Below are positions 2,060 to 31,898 of a DNA stretch of 64,000 nucleotides, in pieces. This stretch comes from Mariniphaga sp. (GTDB lineage: Bacteria > Bacteroidota > Bacteroidia > Bacteroidales > Prolixibacteraceae), in contig JAWLCW010000005.1 in the NCBI GenBank assembly GCA_041686935.1, forward strand, positions 179,715 to 243,714, in the 5' to 3' direction. The notes under the pieces were generated by a model that was given only the letters and a program-made list of their open reading frames with translations, was not told where the DNA came from and made no database searches. Within the stretch, counting starts at the first letter, position 1, and each line of letters opens with the position of its first letter. A program made the position numbers and the translations under genes.

Positions 2060-3889
2060 CTACTGAATTACAGCCACCCAGTCCTTTTCTTTTTCTTCCG
2101 GCGGGTTTCCGATACTGGCAACTCCGGGACCTTTCATTTCGGAAATATTTCCAACTTTCAACTCTCCGCCTTCCCTCGGGTTAAACCATTTTACGCTGTA
2201 GGTTTTATCTGAATCCAACTTCAGTTTACATTCTCCTGCTTTCACTGGAAGGTAAATCACATATATTTCACCCGGACTGGCAAAACAAAATGCATTTTCA
2301 AGGTTCACCAGTTCGTTGGCCGGTTTCATGGATTCAACCGGCAAGGTGTTCACATATTGCGTGGCAATGGTTGATTGTTTCCACCAGTTTTGGCGGCTGC
2401 GGAAATCTTCCAGGTTTAAATCATTGTGCGGATACCGGTAACCGAAATACCACTCCACGCCCCCGGCTCCGGCCATTAAGGCTCCCCAAAGTGCCTGATT
2501 TCGTACGGTATCGTGATTTGCGTCATACGAGTCGGGCATTACGCCTTTCCAGTGCGGACCAAGTTCATCGAGGTTTACCAGCCAGCGTTTACCTGCTTTT
2601 TCAGATTCGTTTACCCATTTGGCAATGCGCTGGTTTATGCGTGCCGGATTGCCGATTTGCATGCTGGGCCCGTCGAGGTTTTCAAAACCCAGGAATGGAG
2701 TGAGGTATTCATCCTGATGATGGTCATCAGCATGGGTATGTACCACCACAATATTTGGAAACGGATTGATTTTTTTCAGGTAATTGGCCATGTCCACCTT
2801 TTGCTGGTGGGTCTGTCCGATGGGAGTCCAGTTGGCCGGGCCGTTTTCCTCGCCCATGTTCCAGGTAACTGCCAGGTGGTGGCCAAACCGGGCAATCAGT
2901 TCGCGCAGGTAAACCATCCGCTGTACATCGGTGAATCCATTATCGAGCAGCGTTTCGTTTTCGGTTTCCTGCAAAACAAAATGCAGCATGATGCCAAGCT
3001 TTTGGGCATGGTCGAAAACGATTTCCCACTGGTCGAGTTTGCTGCAGTCGAACCGGTACCGTTCGTTGTGATCTGTGTAAGGCCAAACGTCTTTCCCGTC
3101 GCCCAGTATATTCATAGTCAGCATGTAAACTGAATTCACCCCTGCAAAATGAAGGTAATTCAGCGCACCGATTATTCCTTTTCCCTTTCCGTTCTGCCAG
3201 GTGGGATCGCCTTCGTTCCAGTCGGCCATGTGCGGTTCGTATTTGTGTAAATCCTTTTTCGGGTCGGCTTCTCCTTCACGCACTTCTGTTTTCAGGCTGA
3301 AACGCGAAGTCTGGTCAAAGTCGGCAAAAGCCAGAAAATTCTCCGGACTGTCGGCGCCATTTTTAATCCATATATTTTCGGAACCCTGAAATTTGAAGTA
3401 GCCTTTTCCCCCGTTAACAATACGCCCTTTTGCGCGAAAGTCGTCACCCGTTTTATCCGAAGGCTCAATGGTAAAAGTTCCTTCGCGCCCATCGAGCATA
3501 TCGATCGGTTCACCATGGTTATTATTTTCTTTCACAATAATATCTTTTCCTTTTCTGAACGAAATTTTGTACTTCCATTCGCCGGGTTCATCAGGCCGGA
3601 ACCGCACTTTCCAGATATTTCCCTCTTCAACCGAGTTTTCGGCGGCATTTACGACTGTTGCAAAAAAACCGGGTACAGTGTAACTTTTGTTTCCTTTTGT
3701 GAATGTAGCTTCCAGTTTATAATCCAGGAAGGGATTTTCTTTCGCATACTCCGAAGTTAGCGGACCGGGAATTACCAGCGTAACTTTATGCCATTGTTTC
3801 AATTCGCCGTCATGTAAAATATACGGTTCTTCGGCTTTTGATTGGGTAAAAAGAAAGAAAAACAGGAAAAATAAGGTCAGGTTTTTCAT
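2060..3889 (-). CDS. Secreted glycoside-hydrolase-like protein (DUF5060-type N-terminal beta-sandwich plus TIM-barrel domain)
   Basis: 609 aa with an N-terminal signal peptide. The block HKVTLVIPGP...NPFLDYKLEATFTKGNKSYTVPGFFA is typical of DUF5060-containing putative hydrolases. The family cannot be assigned by eye. Confidence 0.5.
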   Translation of the reverse strand: MKNLTLFFLFFFLFTQSKAEEPYILHDGELKQWHKVTLVIPGPLTSEYAKENPFLDYKLEATFTKGNKSYTVPGFFATVVNAAENSVEEGNIWKVRFRPDEPGEWKYKISFRKGKDIIVKENNNHGEPIDMLDGREGTFTIEPSDKTGDDFRAKGRIVNGGKGYFKFQGSENIWIKNGADSPENFLAFADFDQTSRFSLKTEVREGEADPKKDLHKYEPHMADWNEGDPTWQNGKGKGIIGALNYLHFAGVNSVYMLTMNILGDGKDVWPYTDHNERYRFDCSKLDQWEIVFDHAQKLGIMLHFVLQETENETLLDNGFTDVQRMVYLRELIARFGHHLAVTWNMGEENGPANWTPIGQTHQQKVDMANYLKKINPFPNIVVVHTHADDHHQDEYLTPFLGFENLDGPSMQIGNPARINQRIAKWVNESEKAGKRWLVNLDELGPHWKGVMPDSYDANHDTVRNQALWGALMAGAGGVEWYFGYRYPHNDLNLEDFRSRQNWWKQSTIATQYVNTLPVESMKPANELVNLENAFCFASPGEIYVIYLPVKAGECKLKLDSDKTYSVKWFNPREGGELKVGNISEMKGPGVASIGNPPEEKEKDWVAVIQ

Positions 3890-3907
3890 TGTATGGTTAT
3901 TTAAAAA

Positions 3908-18198: not shown

Positions 18199-19392
18199 TT
18201 ATTGATGGACAAATTCTTTCCAGTCCTTGCCGCCGGTGAGCCAGGCCAGATTAAACCGGGCCATTTTGCCGCCGCCGTCGCTTTCGTAGAAAAGGTAAAT
18301 CAGACCTTCAGAAGGTGTTCCCGCACGACCTGCGGTTAACGACGAATAGGCAAAGCTGCCTTTGTCAACCACACGTTTTACCGGCCAGGTTTTGCCGCCG
18401 TCGAAACTGGCCCACACAGTGCCGTTGAAGCGGCGTGAGGTGCGCAGTTCAAAGGGAACATCTTCGTCCTTTTTATCGGCCGGAACATCGATGTTGCTGA
18501 ACAGCAGGATGTCGTGCCCCTCAACCGGCAGGCGCACCAGCCCGGCCATTAACCCGTAATCGGTGTGCTGGGCGCCGTCGGGCAGGTCTTCATCTATCCA
18601 TAAATCTTCCCACGTTTGGCCGCCGTCGTAACTGTATGCGATGTACCTGCGGCGCGGGTTCAGCCCGTCGGTGGATTTATGCCGCCGTGAGTTGTAGTAA
18701 AGCGTTCCGCCGGAAAGTTCGGCAATGGCTGCTTCGCCGGCGCCATAAGCCGGAAACGGTTCGCCGGCCTGCCAGGTTTTGCCGCCGTCGTCGCTGTAAA
18801 TGGCGTTGGTGTAGTGTTCGTCCCAGAACTCCCGGCCGTTGCCGCTGCCGTACCAGCGCGAGGGGCGAATCAGCCTTCCGGCATATTTCCCCTGCTTCAG
18901 CGTGATGCCGTGCTCGTTCATGTGCATGGACGGGACATGCCCCAGGCTGTTGGGGCGGATGGTCACCTCCTCCGCATTCCAGGTTTTCCCGTGGTCGCGG
19001 CTGCGGTAAATCGTGAGCGGGGCAGGCGGGTGTCCTCCCTCCGCAAAAGCCAGGATGTGGCCGGTGGTTTCATCCACGGTGGTGCCGCCGCCCTGAAATC
19101 CGGGATGGGCCACGGTAATTTCCGGCTCCCAGGTTTGGCCGCCGTCTTCGCTGCGGAGCACCCTGAAATGTTCGCTTCCCCAGGTAGCCACAATGGTTCC
19201 GTCGGTAGTGGTAACCACATTGGGAAACCGCTCGTTGGAAACCAGTTGCTGCACTTCAAAAACTGGCTGTCCGTTGTTCCAGAACGGATTTTTTTGCGCG
19301 GTTTTGCACGAGATGAAGAGGATAATCACAACAAGAACAGCGGCTATGCAATGTTTTTTGATGCTCATTTTTTTATGTTTATCGTTTGACAA
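18199..19392 (-). CDS. BNR/Asp-box repeat protein (sialidase/GH33-like beta-propeller), lipoprotein
   Basis: 397 aa with five Asp-boxes: SEDGGQTW, SRDHGKTW, SDDGGKTW, SYDGGQTW and SFDGGKTW. The lipobox is FISC. The start may be the internal Met at 19368. Confidence 0.8.
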   Translation of the reverse strand: MSNDKHKKMSIKKHCIAAVLVVIILFISCKTAQKNPFWNNGQPVFEVQQLVSNERFPNVVTTTDGTIVATWGSEHFRVLRSEDGGQTWEPEITVAHPGFQGGGTTVDETTGHILAFAEGGHPPAPLTIYRSRDHGKTWNAEEVTIRPNSLGHVPSMHMNEHGITLKQGKYAGRLIRPSRWYGSGNGREFWDEHYTNAIYSDDGGKTWQAGEPFPAYGAGEAAIAELSGGTLYYNSRRHKSTDGLNPRRRYIAYSYDGGQTWEDLWIDEDLPDGAQHTDYGLMAGLVRLPVEGHDILLFSNIDVPADKKDEDVPFELRTSRRFNGTVWASFDGGKTWPVKRVVDKGSFAYSSLTAGRAGTPSEGLIYLFYESDGGGKMARFNLAWLTGGKDWKEFVHQ

Positions 19393-19712
19393 ATCGTTTA
19401 AGATGCTTATTTTTAAACCCTAAATAAATCAAAAATTGAATTCAGAACCTGAAATAACACGAAGAAACAAAATTTTTCCAGGCCCCGAAAATTTCGGTAG
19501 CGGTGAAGATTGGGAAAAGTTAGTTGGAGTTAGTGAAAACCACGCCGGGGTGCGCCGGATGAAATTTTTTAACGGAAAAGATGGGTTACACAACTTTTTT
19601 GGCATTGTATTCCAACCCGATAATAGAGATATAAACCAACTCTTCGGGTTTTACATACGTTATGTGCGTCATGCTAAAAGTCTCAGTGCTACATTAAAAA
19701 ATTGATGAAAAA

Positions 19713-20500
19713 ATGGGAATAATAGATTTAACAGTAACTTCTTGTATTCATTTAGTTAGAAGTAATCTCAAGGATTTAAAACCAATTTCAATTGGCTCAG
19801 GTGTTATTATTAAAAATAAGGAAAGATTTTTCATTTGTACTGTTTCTCATTTTTCTGATTACCCTGAAGAAAACGTTGGAATTGTGACAGGTAGAATAAA
19901 AAATAATGAAACTGAAGTTTATTACCTTGGTAATTTCTCATACCTGACAAAGATAAGTTTTGAAGAAATGCCTGATGCTGAAGATTTAGTTTATTGTATT
20001 GAAAATCCAGATATGGGTGGAGATAAATTGGACATTGCATTTAGGGAAATTTCTTTATTGGAGAATATTGTTCAGGATAAGAGAGAATTCGATTTGAATG
20101 GTATTGGTAAGATAACAGTTAATCAAGGCGGGAAGTCTTTATTATTTGCAGATGATGACTATCAGATTGATACTAATTATCAATGTAGTTTTATGGTAGG
20201 ATTAGACCAAAATTGGAAAACGGAATTTTGGATTTTCAAGAAGCGTTATATTGGAATTTGCCAATAAAATCAGTTGGTGAAGAATTTATTGAAATGGATT
20301 TAGGAGCACCAATAAATGACCATACGAGATTTAAAGGTTGCAGTGGTGCACCGATTATTGACACAAGGGTGCGCTTAATTGGTTTAGTTACTCATGGTGA
20401 AAAAGATACTACAAAAAGCAGTATATATAGATTTAGGTTTGATAAAGTTAAACAATGGATTGATTTAATGTATTTTCAAGAACCAATATCAAAAATGTAA
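19713..20500 (+). pseudogene. Trypsin-like serine protease interrupted by a single frameshift (or sequencing error)
   Basis: The 19713-20267 ORF carries His (TVSHF, 19848-19850) and Asp (LDIAF, 20031-20033). The ORF in the other frame (open from 20189, ending 20500) carries Ser (GCSGAP, 20342-20344). The total span is 788 nt, one nucleotide short of an intact frame. Confidence 0.65.
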
Positions 20501-20525
20501 ATAGTTAATAATAAGGAAATACGGA

Positions 20526-22031
20526 ATGAAAAGTATAATTGAATTAGATGAAATTGAAGCAAGAGAGTTCTTTTTGAAAGAAAAGAATTATGTGAATTTT
20601 GACCTTCCAACTTACTTTTCGTTTCAGAATTTATTGAACTTGCTTGACAAACAATTGTCCGGAAAAAAACTTTCAGATTATAGAACAACAAATCCAAGAG
20701 ACTTTGATGATATAAATTATTATATTTTAAATAATAAAGATGGAAAATATGCTTGGCGACCATTTCAAATAATAAATCCTGCAATTTATGTTTCTCTTGT
20801 TCAATGTATTACAGATAAAGATAATTGGGAATTAATACAAAAAAGATTTCTTAACTATCAAGAGAATGACAGAATAGAATGCCACAGTTTACCGATGGTA
20901 TCAGGTAGTGAAGAAAAAACAGATAAAGAATCTCAAATTTTCACTTGGTGGCAAATGATTGAACAAAAGTCAATTACTCTTTCACTTGATTATCACTACT
21001 TCTTGCAGACTGATATTACAGATTGCTATGGCTCAATTTATACTCATTCGATTAGTTGGGCTATTCATGAAAAAACTGAAGCTAAAAAGAAAGAAAATAG
21101 AACAAAGAATTCTTTAATAGGAGTCGCAATTGATAACCATTTACAAGACATGAGTTATGGACAAACCAATGGGATTCCACAAGGAAGTACTCTAATGGAT
21201 TTCATTGCTGAAATAGTTCTTGGATATGTAGATGAGTTGCTAACACACAAAATAAACGAATTAAGCATTTCTGATTATAAAATTCTAAGATATCGAGATG
21301 ATTATAGGATTTTTACAAACAATCCATTTGAAGCAGAACAAATTACAAAAGCATTATCTGAAATTCTTTCTGACTTAGGATTAAAACTTAATGTCAGTAA
21401 AACTAATGCATCAGACAATGTTATTAAAAGTTCTTTAAAACCTGATAAACGATATTGGATTGCAAATAGGCGTATTGCGGAAAACAAACAAAAATGGTTG
21501 ATTCAATTATTCTTATTATCTGAGCAATTTCCTAATTCAGGGACTTTAGATACTCAAATGAGAGATTTTTTAGAAGTATTGAAAAAAAATAAAAAAGATG
21601 ATTCAAATATTGAGTCTTTGATAAGTTTAGTTACAGAAATTGCATATCGTAATCCAAGAGTAGTTCCGACATCTATAATGATATTATCTCTTTTAATTAA
21701 ACAGATTAAAATTAAGGATGATAAAAAAATAATTTTGAAAAGGATTTATTCGAAGTTTCAACAAATTCCAAATTCAACATTTCTAAAAATATGGTTGCAA
21801 AGACTTACTGTTAAGATTGATACTTCAATTATTTATGATGAACCTATCTGTAAGCTTCTTTCTGATAATGAAATACAGCTTTGGAATATTAATTGGCTTA
21901 ATGATAAAATTAAAAATAAGATAAAAAAGACCCCAATTATAATTCAATCAAAAGTGAAAACATTGAGAGCTGTAGTAACAACCAAAGAAATAGATAACAT
22001 GATAACAAAAAACGCATACAATTACGAATAA
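20526..22031 (+). CDS. Reverse transcriptase with a non-RT C-terminal extension (defence-associated UG/Abi-like architecture)
   Basis: 501 aa. The RT motifs are in order: KDGKYAWRPFQIINP (1/2), LQTDITDCYGSI (A), NGIPQGSTLMDFIAE (B), RYRDDYRIF (C, YRDD at 21291-21302) and GLKLNVSKT (D). About 190 further residues show no RT motifs. Confidence 0.9.
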   Translation: MKSIIELDEIEAREFFLKEKNYVNFDLPTYFSFQNLLNLLDKQLSGKKLSDYRTTNPRDFDDINYYILNNKDGKYAWRPFQIINPAIYVSLVQCITDKDNWELIQKRFLNYQENDRIECHSLPMVSGSEEKTDKESQIFTWWQMIEQKSITLSLDYHYFLQTDITDCYGSIYTHSISWAIHEKTEAKKKENRTKNSLIGVAIDNHLQDMSYGQTNGIPQGSTLMDFIAEIVLGYVDELLTHKINELSISDYKILRYRDDYRIFTNNPFEAEQITKALSEILSDLGLKLNVSKTNASDNVIKSSLKPDKRYWIANRRIAENKQKWLIQLFLLSEQFPNSGTLDTQMRDFLEVLKKNKKDDSNIESLISLVTEIAYRNPRVVPTSIMILSLLIKQIKIKDDKKIILKRIYSKFQQIPNSTFLKIWLQRLTVKIDTSIIYDEPICKLLSDNEIQLWNINWLNDKIKNKIKKTPIIIQSKVKTLRAVVTTKEIDNMITKNAYNYE

Positions 22032-22052
22032 AGCACGAACGCAGAACACGCA

Positions 22053-22156
22053 ATATAGCCAATGGCGGGAACTGTGGGAGTTTGAATCTTTCTGCCCCAC
22101 ATCAAGGTTTGTAACGGTGGATAATGACGAAGCCCGCAAACCGCCACTGGCCATAT
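22053..22156 (+). ncRNA. Candidate structured RNA in the RT-Mrr spacer
   Basis: ATATAGCCAATGGCGG (22053-22068) is the imperfect reverse complement of CCGCCACTGGCCATAT (22141-22156), matching 14 of 16. An inner stem TGTGGG/CCCACA is present. G+C is 27/60 at 22081-22140 inside an otherwise roughly 28% G+C island. There is no expression evidence. Confidence 0.3.
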
Positions 22157-22196
22157 TGTTAAACGTTTTAATCTAAATTTTAAAAGATAAGAAATT

Positions 22197-23060
22197 ATGG
22201 ACAAATACTTTAAATATAAATATGACGACCTTTTTAACCCGACATTAAAAGCATTGAAAAAACTTGGAGGTTCAGGTGCGATAAGTGAAATTGAGGAGGA
22301 GGTTGCTCAACTTCTAAATTTATCTGAAGAAGCGACTAATGAAATACACCGAGAAAGTACTACTAAATTGACGTATAGGCTTGCTTGGGCAAGAAACTAT
22401 CTTAAAAGGTATGGTCTGCTTGAAAATTCTTCGAGAGGTGTTTGGGCATTGTCTGAAGAAGGGAAAAATATAACTGAAGTAAACCAGGAGAAAGTTAAAA
22501 AGTTCGTCGTAAAAAAAGATAGGGAAGAGCGGCTTCAAAAGAAAAGTGAAGGAAATTGTTCACCCGAACTTCAAGGTACAACAGAAGAGATAGAAGAGTT
22601 TTCTTGGCAAGATAAATTGCTTGACACCATAAAAGCCATACTCCCAGACCAATTTGAAAGACTTTGCCAAAGGCTTTTAAGGGAATTAGGTTTTGTAAAC
22701 GTAGAAGTTACAGGCAAAACAAATGATGGTGGAATTGATGGAAAAGGAATGATTAGACTTGGTGGTGTTCTTTCATTTCATGTAGTTTTTCAAGCTAAAC
22801 GATATCAAGGTTCTGTTTCATCTTCAGTAATTAGGGATTTTAGAGGCGCAATGAGTGGACGAGCGGACAAAGGGCTGATAATGACAACTGGAAGTTTTTC
22901 CCGGGAAGCAAAAAAAGAAGCACAACGAGATGGTGCAATACCTATTGACTTAATTGATGGTAACGATTTCGCAGAAAAACTTAAAGAGCTAAATTTGGGA
23001 GTGACAGTTGAGTTGGTGGAAGAGGTTAAAATAAAATCAGATTGGTTTAAGAATATTTAA
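22197..23060 (+). CDS. mrr: Mrr-family restriction endonuclease (Mrr_N winged helix plus Mrr catalytic domain)
   Basis: 287 aa. The N-terminus LFNPTLKALKKLGGSGAISEIEEEV...YRLAWARNYLKRYGLLENSSRGVWALSEEG is Mrr_N-like. The C-terminal core is NDGGIDGKG...VVFQAKRY (D...QxK), followed by GLIMTTGSFS. Confidence 0.85.
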   Translation: MDKYFKYKYDDLFNPTLKALKKLGGSGAISEIEEEVAQLLNLSEEATNEIHRESTTKLTYRLAWARNYLKRYGLLENSSRGVWALSEEGKNITEVNQEKVKKFVVKKDREERLQKKSEGNCSPELQGTTEEIEEFSWQDKLLDTIKAILPDQFERLCQRLLRELGFVNVEVTGKTNDGGIDGKGMIRLGGVLSFHVVFQAKRYQGSVSSSVIRDFRGAMSGRADKGLIMTTGSFSREAKKEAQRDGAIPIDLIDGNDFAEKLKELNLGVTVELVEEVKIKSDWFKNI

Positions 23061-23106
23061 AATAAATGAAAAACTCAGGCTGACATCAAATAAATCACTC
23101 CACGAA

Positions 23107-23202
23107 ATGACCGCCGAAGAGCTGGGGCAGTTGTTTCCGGTGGTGATTGAGGAATACCAAAGTGACTGGGTGGAGTTGTACCGGCCGGAGGAAAAGAAGT
23201 AA
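23107..23202 (+). pseudogene. 5' remnant of a GrpB-family gene (31 codons then stop)
   Basis: MTAEELGQLFPVVIEEYQSDWVELYRPEEKK* matches my memory of GrpB-family N-termini (...EEL.QLFP..L.EY...W...Y..E). Full-length GrpB proteins are several-fold longer. The local G+C is higher than in both neighbours. Confidence 0.5.
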
Positions 23203-23264
23203 AATAACCTTCAAAACTGCCGATGAGAAAGTTAAATTGAAGAAACTGAAAAAGTAAAATAGCG

Positions 23265-24314
23265 ATGGCTGATAAAAAGAAAAATAAACAGGAAATAGTT
23301 CGTTCGTCAGCAGCCGAATATTTAACCTTTATTGCTGCAGGAGGTGGTTCGGAAACAAGTGTTGAAATGCGCTACGAGGATGAAAATGTATGGCTTACTC
23401 AAAAAATGATGGCAACACTTTACAATGTTTCTGTGCCTGCAATTAACCAACACTTAAAACGTATCTATTCTGATAATGAATTGGAGCCGAAGGCAACTAT
23501 TAAGAAATACTTAATAGTTCAAACCGAAGGAAAAAGGGAAGTGCAACGGGAAGTGGATCACTTCAGCCTGCAAGCAATAATTGCTGTGGGGTTTAAAATT
23601 GAAAATGAACGGGCTGTACAGTTTCGCAAATGGGCAAACCAGATTGTAAAAGATTATACCATTCAGGGTTGGACAATGGACGTAGAACGTTTAAAAAATG
23701 GCGGTACCCTAACCGATGAATTTTTTGAAAAACAACTTGAAAAGATTCGGGAAATCCGTTTGTCGGAGCGAAAATTTTATCAGAAAGTAACCGATATTTA
23801 TGCAACCTCCATAGATTACGACCCAACAGCAACGGCTACAAAACGTTTTTTTGCTGCGGTACAAAATAAAATGCACTATGCCATTCACGGTAATACGGCA
23901 GCTGAGGTAATCGTTAACAGATCTGACCATCAAGAAGATAACATGGGGCTAACTACCTGGGAGGGGGCTCCAAAAGGTAAAATACACAAATATGATGTTA
24001 CCGTAGCCAAAAATTATCTTTCTGAATATGAGTTGGGGCAAATGCAACGAATTGTATCGGCTTATTTAGATATGGCAGAATTACAGGCTATGCGCAAAAT
24101 ACCAATGACAATGGAAGATTGGGAAAGTCGGCTCGGTGGTTTTTTAAAACTGTGGGACAGGGAAATATTGCAGGACGCAGGAAAAGTAACAGCAGAAATG
24201 GCAAAAGCCCATGCCGAAAGCGAATTCGAAAAATACAGGATTATTCAGGACAGATTGTTTGAATCGGATTTTGACCGGTTTTTAAAGCAGCTTAAAGAAA
24301 AATCCGAAGAATAA
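23265..24314 (+). CDS. rhuM: RhuM family protein
   Basis: 349 aa. The N-terminal block VRSSAAEYLTF...VEMRYEDENVWLTQKMMATLYNVSVPAINQHLKRIY and the later FRKWANQIVKDYTIQG are typical RhuM-family sequence as I remember it. Confidence 0.75.
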   Translation: MADKKKNKQEIVRSSAAEYLTFIAAGGGSETSVEMRYEDENVWLTQKMMATLYNVSVPAINQHLKRIYSDNELEPKATIKKYLIVQTEGKREVQREVDHFSLQAIIAVGFKIENERAVQFRKWANQIVKDYTIQGWTMDVERLKNGGTLTDEFFEKQLEKIREIRLSERKFYQKVTDIYATSIDYDPTATATKRFFAAVQNKMHYAIHGNTAAEVIVNRSDHQEDNMGLTTWEGAPKGKIHKYDVTVAKNYLSEYELGQMQRIVSAYLDMAELQAMRKIPMTMEDWESRLGGFLKLWDREILQDAGKVTAEMAKAHAESEFEKYRIIQDRLFESDFDRFLKQLKEKSEE

Positions 24315-24376
24315 ATTATGCCGGGTATTAAGGAAACAATATTTCAGTTTTGAATCCCCCTTCGATTCCCCTTCCG

Positions 24377-24418
24377 AAGCCGCGAAGCGATTCCAATGGA
24401 AGAATCACTTCGTGGCTT
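24377..24418. terminator. Hairpin between convergent rhuM and iorB
   Basis: AAGCCGCGAAGCGATTC (24377-24393) pairs with GAATCACTTCGTGGCTT (24402-24418): 15 Watson-Crick pairs, one G-U and one mismatch, with an 8-nt loop. There is no clean U-tract. Confidence 0.4.
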
Positions 24419-24506
24419 TGGCAGACATCATCCATTTTTCAAAGCTAAATTTTCGCCAAGGGGGACGCGTTCTTATGAACTTTGGTTGTTTGATGAATAA
24501 GTCATC

Positions 24507-25088
24507 TCAGCTTTTGCTCAGGGAAAAGGCCCGTCCGGCTTTGAAAGCTTCAATGTTCATTTCTACAATTTTATTGCCTTTGGCTTTGAAAATGGTTTCA
24601 ATGCCTTTGATGATGATTTCCTCGTGAATGGCGATGAACGGCGAGGCGGCGCCCAGCATTACCATGTTGGAGGCTTTGGGATTGCCGGTTTCTTTGGCAA
24701 TCTGGTCGGCATCGATGCGGACGATGTTGATTTTTTTGCTGAGCTCATCGAAAGTTTTTTCCAGCTCCGGATAATTTGGGATGTTTACAAACTCGGCTGT
24801 ATTGGTCACAAGGCTTCCTTTTGGCGAAAGGTAGGGCAGGTAGCGCAACGATTCCATGGGCTCCACCGACAGGATGAGGTCGGCATGGCCTGTTGGAATC
24901 AGGTCGGACCAGATGGGGTGGTCGGCAATGCGCAGGTGCGAAACCACGGCACCCCCGCGCTGGCTCATGCCGTGCGTTTCGGCCTGTTTCAGGTAATAGT
25001 TTTCGTTGAGGGCGGCAGCGCCCAGTGAGGCGGCAATGGAAAGAATTCCCTGACCGCCAACCCCTGCCAGTATAATGTCTGTCTTCAT
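24507..25088 (-). CDS. iorB: Indolepyruvate:ferredoxin oxidoreductase, beta subunit
   Basis: 193 aa. MKTDIILAGVGGQGILSIA...GMSQRGGAV is typical of the gamma/IorB 2-oxoacid:ferredoxin oxidoreductase domain, and iorA is adjacent. Confidence 0.85.
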   Translation of the reverse strand: MKTDIILAGVGGQGILSIAASLGAAALNENYYLKQAETHGMSQRGGAVVSHLRIADHPIWSDLIPTGHADLILSVEPMESLRYLPYLSPKGSLVTNTAEFVNIPNYPELEKTFDELSKKINIVRIDADQIAKETGNPKASNMVMLGAASPFIAIHEEIIIKGIETIFKAKGNKIVEMNIEAFKAGRAFSLSKS

Positions 25089-28774: not shown

Positions 28775-29002
28775 TTTTCTTTCCTTTTTTGCTGTTGGTA
28801 AACGAGTTTTTTATTGCAGGTTCAAAGGTAGGATTATTTTTTGTTTGAAGTTTTGATTATGTTTCAGGGACGTTCCAACCAAAAGTCAAACTTGACCAGT
28901 TTAAAAGTACAGCGGTATATTCTTGAATTCAGATAATATTTTTTCTATGGAAGAAGCTAAAAAAATAACAATCATAACTAGAAAAAATCGTAATTTTGGA
29001 CT

Positions 29003-29467
29003 GTGAAACAGCGGATATACATAGATACTTCAGTTTTCGGGGGTTATTTTGATGATGAATTCTCTGAACACACTATTCCTCTGTTCGACCGAATAAGAAA
29101 CAAAGAGTTTATCTTACTTTTTTCGACAGTCACGCAGGAAGAACTTGAAAATGCACCAGAAAAAGTAAAAAAACTGGTTAGAAACCTTAAAGCAGAATAT
29201 ACAGAGTTTTTGGAGACAACTGGCGAAGTTATTGACCTTGCAACAGAATACATAACAGAAAAAGTGGTTGGAAAAACAAGTTTTGCTGACTGTTTGCACA
29301 TAGCATTGGCAACCATCAATCGGGCAGACTTTTTGATAAGTTGGAACTTCAAGCATATAGTGAACATTCAGAAGATAAGCGGTTATAACTCCATCAATAT
29401 TAAAAACGGTTACAAACAACTGGAAATTCGTTCACCCAGAGAATTTAAAAATTATGAAAACGACTGA
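29003..29467 (+). CDS. PIN-domain protein (VapC-like toxin), GTG start
   Basis: 154 aa. RIYIDTSVFGGYFDDEF is the N-terminal acidic PIN motif, followed later by FADCLHIALA. Confidence 0.7.
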   Translation: MKQRIYIDTSVFGGYFDDEFSEHTIPLFDRIRNKEFILLFSTVTQEELENAPEKVKKLVRNLKAEYTEFLETTGEVIDLATEYITEKVVGKTSFADCLHIALATINRADFLISWNFKHIVNIQKISGYNSINIKNGYKQLEIRSPREFKNYEND

Positions 29468-29606
29468 AAAAACATTTGACGCTGTGAAATATATGCGTCA
29501 GCAAAGAAATAAAATAAGCGAAAAGTTAGCCAAAATGACTAAAGAAGAAATTCTGGAATACTTCAACAAGCGTAAAACAGAATTGACAAATAAACCTGGT
29601 GCTTAA
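29454..29606 (+). CDS. Small ORF overlapping the PIN gene end (candidate partner/antitoxin)
   Basis: 50 codons, absent from the ORF track because it is under 60 aa: MKTTEKTFDAVKYMRQQRNKISEKLAKMTKEEILEYFNKRKTELTNKPGA*. The ATG at 29454 overlaps the PIN stop (29465-29467) by 14 nt. Confidence 0.4.
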   Translation: MKTTEKTFDAVKYMRQQRNKISEKLAKMTKEEILEYFNKRKTELTNKPGA

Positions 29607-29651
29607 ATTTTGGTATAAAGTATTTTAGCCAGTGGTTTCTGCTCCAAATGG

Positions 29652-31340: not shown

Positions 31341-31591
31341 ACCAACCGTATGTAAACATTACAAATGGCAGGTTCATTTGTTTAACCGGTGCAGGTCCAA
31401 ATCGTGTTGTACACTAAATATTTAAAATTCCCGCCTGCTATTCGAAAACATAAATTTAATTTTTAACTTTAATGAGCTAAAAACCAAAAAAATGATTAGA
31501 CTGAATAACAATGGCAACGAAAAGTTTTTTTTATTAATTTCAGGTAACTGCAATCTAAATTAAAGCGTTTTTCACCGCCACTGGCTAAACG

Positions 31592-31699
31592 TTTTTTTAA
31601 CACAGAATTTCCCGCCAGCCAGCCGGTTGACGAGGCAATTTGTAAGTTGGAGCCGCCGGTATCGGCATCGGGGTCGATGATTTCGCCGGCAATAAAAGG
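31592..31699 (-). pseudogene. C-terminal remnant of an HI0933-like (BaiN-type) flavoprotein gene
   Basis: The minus-strand translation is PFIAGEIIDPDADTGGSNLQIASSTGWLAGNSVLKK. It resembles the conserved C-terminus (..AGE.lD.dg.tGGyNlQ.A.ssG..AG) of roughly 400-aa HI0933-family proteins. The frame has no start codon and is closed by a stop at 31730-31732. Confidence 0.45.
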
Positions 31700-31837
31700 C
31701 CGGCAAAAACGGCCTTTTACCCTATAGAATTATTTAAAGCCGGGAAGTTCCAAAGCCATAGAATTTATTTCTCAAAATTGAAATAAGATTTATAAAAAGT
31801 CAGGAATCCGTATAATGATGTTTTTTTCGATGATGGT

Positions 31838-31877
31838 AAAAAAAAAGAGGCAATTTCGGTTTTGAAACAGCCTCTTT
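31838..31877 (-). terminator. Rho-independent terminator downstream of gltA
   Basis: On the minus strand AAAGAGGC (rc of 31870-31877) pairs with GCCTCTTT (rc of 31844-31851) and is followed by a T-run (rc of the A-run at 31838-31846). The element lies 22 nt past the gltA stop. Confidence 0.55.
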
Positions 31878-31898
31878 AAATAAATTTAAACTAAACGA

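Follow-up and report, generated by a model that had tools for sequence, protein, structure and literature searches.

Gene content of the locus

We have analyzed a stretch of 64,000 nucleotides (64 kb) of a Mariniphaga genome, referred to below as the window. The citrate synthase of this Prolixibacteraceae bacterium shares 92-93% identity with proteins of named Mariniphaga, and the genome probably derives from a hot-spring metagenome. The window includes an AT-rich island, flanked by a BNR-repeat gene on one side and a pyruvate:ferredoxin oxidoreductase (POR) gene on the other; the surrounding ORFs have housekeeping or carbohydrate-related functions. The island contains an Abi-P2-type reverse transcriptase (RT) gene (20526-22031, + strand), the product of which matches Pfam RVT_1 and the PADLOC AbiP2 profile PDLC03744 (E = 3.5e-195, 647 bits), with residues 1-494 aligned to positions 4-485 of the 489 in the profile. 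The likeness to the Abi-P2 and AbiK polymerases consists in this full-length match, which takes in both the RT core and the helical C-terminal part. Upstream of the RT gene is a gene for a trypsin-like protease (19713-20500, + strand), split by a frameshift into two ORFs (19713-20267 and 20213-20500). Downstream are mrr (22197-23060, + strand), a type IV restriction gene with the Pfam domains Mrr_N and Mrr_cat, and a RhuM-family gene (23265-24314). The window yielded no tRNA or tmRNA in a scan for these genes, and neither a motif scan nor Pfam identified a tyrosine recombinase in it.

A close relative, L161, whose citrate synthase is 99% identical, carries at the same place a DUF6265 gene beside what is left of the 3' end of rhuM; given this different cargo, the BNR-POR interval is a variable hotspot. 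Between mrr and rhuM, at 23107-23202, the window has a GC-richer gene remnant with an apparent GrpB-family N-terminus (TAEELGQLFPVVIEEYQSDWVELYRPEEKK), recognized by eye only. A second variable hotspot lies between a GSDH-like gene and mgsA (28800-29650 in the window, 13562-14560 in L161), where the window is AT-rich with a PIN-domain gene (29003-29467) and L161 has a RhuM gene.

Sequence and secondary structure of the spacer

The RT stop codon (22029-22031) and the start of mrr (22197) are separated by a spacer of 165 nt. Its G+C fraction is 0.47 over 22035-22175, against 0.25-0.30 (about 0.27) in the RT gene. The original prediction, made by reading the sequence alone, had pointed to this enrichment, but counted 27 of 60 positions as G or C at 22081-22140 where there are 28 of 60. 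An inverted-repeat search identified a long stem with 18-nt arms at 22051-22068 and 22141-22158, 72 nt apart, in which 16 of 18 positions are paired (89% complementary). The long-range stem predicted earlier is thus present with its 16-nt arms and its 72-nt loop, and is extended by two more pairs. At the two mismatches of the stem (22057/22152 and 22062/22147) the + strand has A facing C, which corresponds to G·T on the - strand. The inner stem TGTGGG/CCCACA that had also been predicted exists, with arms at 22073-22078 and 22096-22101, the first arm having been placed one base off at 22074-22079. TGTGGG has an alternative partner, CCCGCA at 22133-22138, and this is the pairing that the minimum-energy fold picks. 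RNA folding of the + strand gave -46.5 kcal/mol with a z score of -3.3, and none of 200 shuffled sequences folded equally well; the z score of the - strand was -2.3.

A family of elements with a conserved fold

The family to which the spacer belongs was sought in a set of 80 genomic loci encoding relatives of the RT, with 46-89% identity. BLASTN of the spacer against these 80 loci returned short, chance-level matches only; plain sequence searching fails here because the family is too diverged, and its members were recovered by a structure-aware scan and by covariance models. In several relatives the RT stop codon is followed by GCACGAACGCAnAAC and then by a GC-richer palindrome of unrelated sequence that ends in AACGTT. 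A pattern scan was defined as AAC, 4-6 nt, a stem and its complementary stem, 4-8 nt and GTT. In the window this pattern identified the spacer element and little else. The 80 loci yielded many elements of near-constant length (about 131 nt), many of them directly after the RT gene and some in arrays with a spacing of 0.3-3 kb. An alignment of 23 elements has as invariant features AAC at the 5' end, CGTT at the 3' end, an A in the 5' arm and AC in the 3' arm, and RNAalifold predicted 13 pairs from it, 12 of them with compensatory changes.

A first covariance model, R1, identified 53 elements (E < 0.01) in the 80 RT loci, and all 53 are on the same strand as the RT gene. Among the best 45 of these, none of which comes from the window, standard pairs fill 93.9% of the pair cells, compared with 53% in shuffles, and the covariation score is 0.92 against 0.19; when the structure was slid by 1-3 columns, 35-40% of the cells were paired. 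Double (compensatory) changes occur in all 13 pairs of the 45-element alignment. A second model, R2, was built from these 45 elements of other genomes, leaving the window sequence out. R2 (142 positions) matches the spacer over its full length on the + strand (22035-22175) with 66.8 bits and an E-value of 7.4e-15, and this is its sole significant match in the 64 kb. The structure of the spacer is therefore real and conserved and its fold beats chance, so that the conservation proposed in the original prediction is borne out by the covariance analysis of the family.

Using the terms applied to integron sites, the core of the element extends from 22041 to 22171 on the + strand, a span of 131 nt from the R'' box to the R' box. 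The R'' box, GCAGAAC (22041-22047), begins 10 nt past the RT stop codon and ends in the triplet AAC (22045-22047). It is followed by the L''-side 5' arm of the long stem (22051-22068), for which all 13 modelled pairs have compensatory changes, by a variable terminal structure of 72 nt (22069-22140) that encloses the inner stem and differs in sequence across the family, and by the L'-side 3' arm (22141-22158), supported by the inverted-repeat search and by family covariation. The R' box, GTTTTAA (22165-22171), closes the element. Column by column, AAC is present in 45, 45 and 43 of the 45 aligned elements and the nearly invariant C-G-T-T in 44, 43, 42 and 44. The consensus arms are symmetric, with 17 positions each, and have no conserved bulges in the 45 elements.

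The A·C mismatch at 22062/22147 corresponds to alignment columns 32 and 232, which are A in 45 of 45 and C in 45 of 45 elements. This mismatch is therefore a feature of the family and not a sign of decay. When 81 elements were folded as single-stranded DNA with DNA parameters, the bottom strand came out as more stable in 59 of them (p = 2e-7), since on that strand the conserved A·C mismatches turn into G·T. Mean folding energies over the 81 elements are -18.6 kcal/mol for the bottom strand and -17.1 kcal/mol for the top strand; the corresponding values for the window element are -20.7 and -18.8 kcal/mol.

Arrays, chimeric boxes and neighbouring recombinases

Arrays of co-oriented elements were seen in several of the RT loci (among them L022, L049, L024, L064, L006 and L039), and the hosts of such arrays are Bacteroidota and Ignavibacteriota. 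In each array the 9 nt after GTT of one element were compared with the reverse complement of the 9 nt before AAC of the next. These R' and R'' boxes agree at a mean of 6.5 of 9 positions, with at least 7 agreements in 18 of the 26 pairs; the mean is 3.0 for random pairs and 3.2 for the two boxes of the same element. The poor matches occur mostly where the parser had skipped an intervening element. Chimeric attC/attC sites of this kind have been described for arrays of attC, the recombination site of integrons, by Cury et al. (PMC4889954). In integrons the chimerism arises because the crossover takes place in the conserved triplet, and every integrated cassette thereby holds half of the site of its neighbour.

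The arrays in L008, L064 and L049 adjoin genes for Xer/IntI-like tyrosine recombinases. These three proteins match the NCBIfam model NF040815 ('site-specific tyrosine recombinase/integron integrase'); against the integron-integrase model TIGR02249, array-side recombinases score below the cut-off and match in two stretches. Relative to VchIntIA (2a3v) they are missing about 42 residues, the L064 protein having 18 residues where VchIntIA has 60, and they are collinear end to end with XerA (5hxy, 4a8e). The L049 recombinase (2158-3900, Flavobacterium silvisoli) is a protein of 580 aa in which the Xer-like catalytic part follows an uncharacterized stretch of about 300 residues.

The proteins of L008, L064 and L049 were then used as bait in metagenomes, independently of any RT, and gave a second set of 80 loci. 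R2 identified 70 elements in 32 of these. Sixty elements lie downstream of the recombinase on the same strand, eight upstream on the opposite strand and two downstream on the opposite strand; none of the 70 is upstream on the same strand, despite more upstream sequence having been searched. An array is present in 26 of the 36 recombinase-baited loci with at least 1.5 kb of downstream sequence, and its first element is usually 0.45-1.4 kb from the recombinase stop codon. The longest array among the loci examined is on a metagenome contig (L118, 7586-12816), where the recombinase is followed directly by a run of at least 8 elements.

The genes that accompany the elements are diverse. The defence genes among them include Abi-P2, GmrSD and type I restriction-modification genes. 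In an Ignavibacteriaceae MAG (L008, 1102-8193) the order is a divergent Xer-like recombinase, GmrSD, an element, an Abi-P2 RT gene, a second element and HsdM, a defence-gene array of the same cassette system in which a third element was not detected.

Boundaries and cargo of the cassette

Contigs of four metagenomes, with X1 and X2 being hot-spring samples, were mapped to 19300-24600 of the window. The depth of these contigs is 11-24 over the element, 3-6 over the RT gene and 0 over mrr. At the right end, contigs match the window as far as 22167, the last T of GTT in the R' box, and then continue into mutually different sequences (one contig in X1, one in X2, three in X3 and four in X4). Other contigs, including those of X4, start to match at 22045, the first A of AAC in the R'' box. 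At the left end, an X5 contig matches the window from 19663 only. The sequence that precedes its junction, ...CCCACCAGCCCAACCGT, completes AACCGTTGTGCGTCAT, a sequence typical of attC 3' ends and one with which such cassettes usually start. The window reads ACGTTATGTGCGTCAT at this breakpoint (19657-19672), which resembles a decayed R' box; by comparison with the X5 contig, GTTATGTGCGTCAT (19659-19672, + strand) is the left end of the cassette. This box is similar both to the R' boxes GTTGTGCGTCAG of L022 and L049 and to the reverse complement of the cassette's R'' box (GTTCTGCGT). The match of the own R'' box to the presumed upstream R' box (GTTCTGCGT vs GTTATGTGCGT) is imperfect, the intact form being found in the X5 contig. 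R2 detects no intact element at the left end, where it gives 4.6 bits for 19612-19669, which is not significant.

The breakpoints at 22167 and about 19663 therefore delimit a cassette of about 19660-22165 that holds the protease gene, as its first gene, and the Abi-P2 RT gene. The R' box is its right end and mrr the first gene past its boundary. The protease gene travels with the RT gene in the X1-X3 contigs and is absent beside the RT gene in the other 80 homologous loci; the pairing of the two is lineage-specific, and they could constitute a two-gene defence module. The X1 and X3 contigs have one extra T after 20188, so that intact copies of the protease gene exist elsewhere, and the frameshift near 20188 in the window may be either a real pseudogene or a homopolymer assembly error. 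Abi-P2 was first described in the variable region of P2-like coliphages, whereas in the window the gene is carried, along with a trypsin-like protease gene, by an integron-like cassette.

The spacer as a probable recombination site

Membership in the element family, the co-oriented arrays, the chimeric R'/R'' boxes, the linkage to recombinases and the breakpoints at AAC and GTT all lead to the same reading. With high confidence, we interpret the spacer as an attC-type recombination site, an imperfect palindrome of roughly 131 nt that closes a mobile cassette of protease and Abi-P2 genes and has no dedicated role in the function of the RT. This corresponds to the alternative listed last in the original prediction, a seam between two independently acquired cassettes.

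A site of this type could have an added role in cis, either by insulating or terminating transcription between RT and mrr or by stabilizing the mRNA 3' end. A stable hairpin is indeed present on the sense strand right after the stop codon, and mrr starts only 26 nt past the R' box. However, the region 21800-22400 contains no terminator-like site, the loop of the hairpin is 72 nt long and no T-run follows the stem, observations that also speak against the 'oversized terminator' suggested earlier. We consider such a role unlikely, and it would supplement the attC-type site rather than substitute for it.

The headline of the original prediction was a structured ncRNA that serves the RT as primer, template or guide in the manner of retrons or of DRT2/DRT9-type systems. 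The spacer resembles retron msr/msd and the DRT2, DRT9 and DRT3 ncRNAs in being a conserved structured non-coding stretch that adjoins a defence RT, and its covariation is strong, although covariation alone cannot separate an RNA from folded DNA. Downstream sequence was sufficient to score the position of the element in 76 of the 80 RT loci. It lies directly 3' of the RT gene, within 250 nt of the stop codon, in 17 of the 76; in 4 it is further downstream behind another gene, in 2 it is upstream only, and in 53 there is none. Among close relatives of the RT, L001 (89% identity) and L004 (84%) have another gene between RT and element, and L014 (88%) and L002 (83%) have no family element, L002 carrying a different palindrome with similar ends. 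Unlike the retron and DRT ncRNAs, the family is not specific to RTs. Of the 53 elements in the RT-baited loci, 36 flank genes other than the RT, among them GmrSD and HsdM (L008) and SdpI-like and unknown small ORFs (L049 and L064), and elements are abundant near recombinases without any RT.

Other properties of the element and of the enzyme argue against the ncRNA in the same way. The spacer bears the signatures of a recombination site, and a chimeric R'/R'' pattern would be meaningless for an RNA gene. The A·C mismatches of the stem are on the RT-sense strand, so that a sense RNA would form the poorer hairpin. An Rfam search of 19000-25000 with E-value thresholds gave two chance-level matches, neither of them in the spacer. 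Finally, Abi-P2 and AbiK polymerases carry out protein-primed, template-independent DNA synthesis (PMC9508834), and the RT of the window therefore belongs to a class without a known need for an RNA partner. A role of the spacer as primer, template or guide is thus very improbable, and the original prediction is supported in part: it was right about the structure, and its principal reading of that structure is unsupported.

A REP- or MITE-like selfish palindrome that spreads independently of cassette recombination is scarcely credible, since the element, although palindromic, intergenic and multi-copy in metagenomes at a depth several-fold above that of its flanks, is strictly co-oriented with neighbouring genes, occurs once per gene in regular arrays and at a fixed position relative to the tyrosine recombinase, is tied to neighbouring elements by R'/R'' chimerism, and has a single copy in the 64 kb of the window.

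Comparison with integrons

The attC-type site thus favoured for the spacer shares most of its architecture with the attC sites of integrons, such as the roughly 120-130-nt Vibrio cholerae repeats found in sedentary chromosomal integrons, and of solitary or integrase-less attC clusters (CALIN). In both, an imperfect palindrome lies 3' of a co-oriented, promoterless-looking cassette, the ends are marked by the triplets AAC (22045-22047 in the spacer) and GTT (22165-22167), and the hairpin is maintained by structure, in the spacer as an 18-bp stem with 2 mismatches. The 72-nt loop fits within the 20-100 nt of the variable terminal structure of attC (PMC4889954). Chimeric R boxes between neighbours are seen in the relatives and partially in the window. 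As integrons have their arrays beside an Xer-related tyrosine recombinase, so does the attC-like family, in other genomes. Defence genes are also known as cargo of integron cassettes (PMC4889954; bioRxiv 10.1101/2024.07.02.601686).

There are also clear differences. The extrahelical bulges of classical attC sites are missing from the spacer family; in their stead the family has its invariant A·C mismatch, which on the bottom strand is G·T. The recombinases beside the arrays lack the IntI-specific domain of roughly 35 residues. The site in the window is solitary and has no recombinase. The spacer is therefore classed as a site that works like attC, a variant of that kind and not a member of a canonical integron.

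By analogy with integrons, a single-strand mechanism that acts on the bottom strand can be proposed for the attC-like site. The bottom strand would fold into a hairpin as single-stranded DNA, and a neighbouring Xer-like recombinase would cut and rejoin it at G|TT, between G22165 and T22166 in the spacer. Strand exchange at this point would excise or insert the cassette. The greater stability of the bottom strand in 59 of the 81 elements fits a mechanism with a folded bottom strand.

State of the site in the window

R2 found no second intact element in the 64 kb, and the BNR-POR interval of L161 has no element of the attC-like family. No intact partner for the boxes of the cassette (GTTCTGCGTTCGTGCTT; AAATTTAGATTAAAAC) was found in the window, nor any attC with an R'' box that matches the R' box on the mrr side. 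Other candidates in the window gave no significant score with R2 (4.8 bits for 31509-31583 and nothing in 23050-24520). With neither a recombinase nor a second intact site within 64 kb, the RT cassette and its attC are most likely the relic of a landed cassette, captured and now stranded in the BNR-POR hotspot. Recombination activity at this site is putative and has perhaps been lost.

Two further hairpins in the window deserve mention. One of them, an imperfect palindrome that is long and rich in G+C (TCCCCCTT.../...AAGGGGGA), occupies 24340-24470 between rhuM and the POR gamma gene and contains a 20-bp inner stem with 17 of 20 matches; at the equivalent place L161 has its DUF6265 gene beside a 107-nt remnant of the rhuM 3' end. 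This hairpin was ruled out as a second attC because AAC, stem and GTT are wrongly spaced and R2 gives no match. The other hairpin, a short one at 31498-31602, has ACCGCCACTGGC and TAAACGTTTT in common with the 3' half of the attC and ATAACA...CAATGGC with the 5' half. It lies within 31341-31898, in an insertion of roughly 320-400 nt that is absent from L161. It may be a decayed attC or the remnant of a cassette without an ORF, with the R2 score of 4.8 bits given above.

Implications

As regards the RT, the outcome of this analysis is negative: nothing points to a new mechanism guided or templated by RNA, and the Abi-P2 gene travels as the cargo of a cassette. The bounds of that cassette (about 19660 to 22165) define a unit of protease and Abi-P2 RT suitable for cloning and testing as a single defence module.

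Hundreds of cassettes are bounded by elements of the attC-like family, and the Xer-like recombinases next to them do not qualify as integron integrases under the customary definition. Because standard integron detection demands the IntI domain, such arrays would be reported at best as integrase-less attC clusters. In surveys with IntegronFinder, Bacteroidetes are nearly devoid of integrons: apart from In0 elements, a single complete one was recorded, from Salinibacter (PMC9024848); a review lists Bacteroidota among the integron-bearing phyla (PMC8618304). Non-canonical recombinases could explain the near-absence of integrons from Bacteroidota in published surveys. We found no description of this Bacteroidota cassette family in the literature, which does not prove that none exists. 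The spacer may belong to a widespread integron-like system of Bacteroidota, Ignavibacteriota and their relatives, for the most part missed by standard surveys, with an XerA-like recombinase that lacks the IntI domain, A·C mismatches in place of bulges, and defence genes shuttled as cargo, a wider reading that we put forward tentatively. For the biology of mobile elements, the locus provides a lead to a possibly under-recognized integron-like system in Bacteroidota that carries defence genes.
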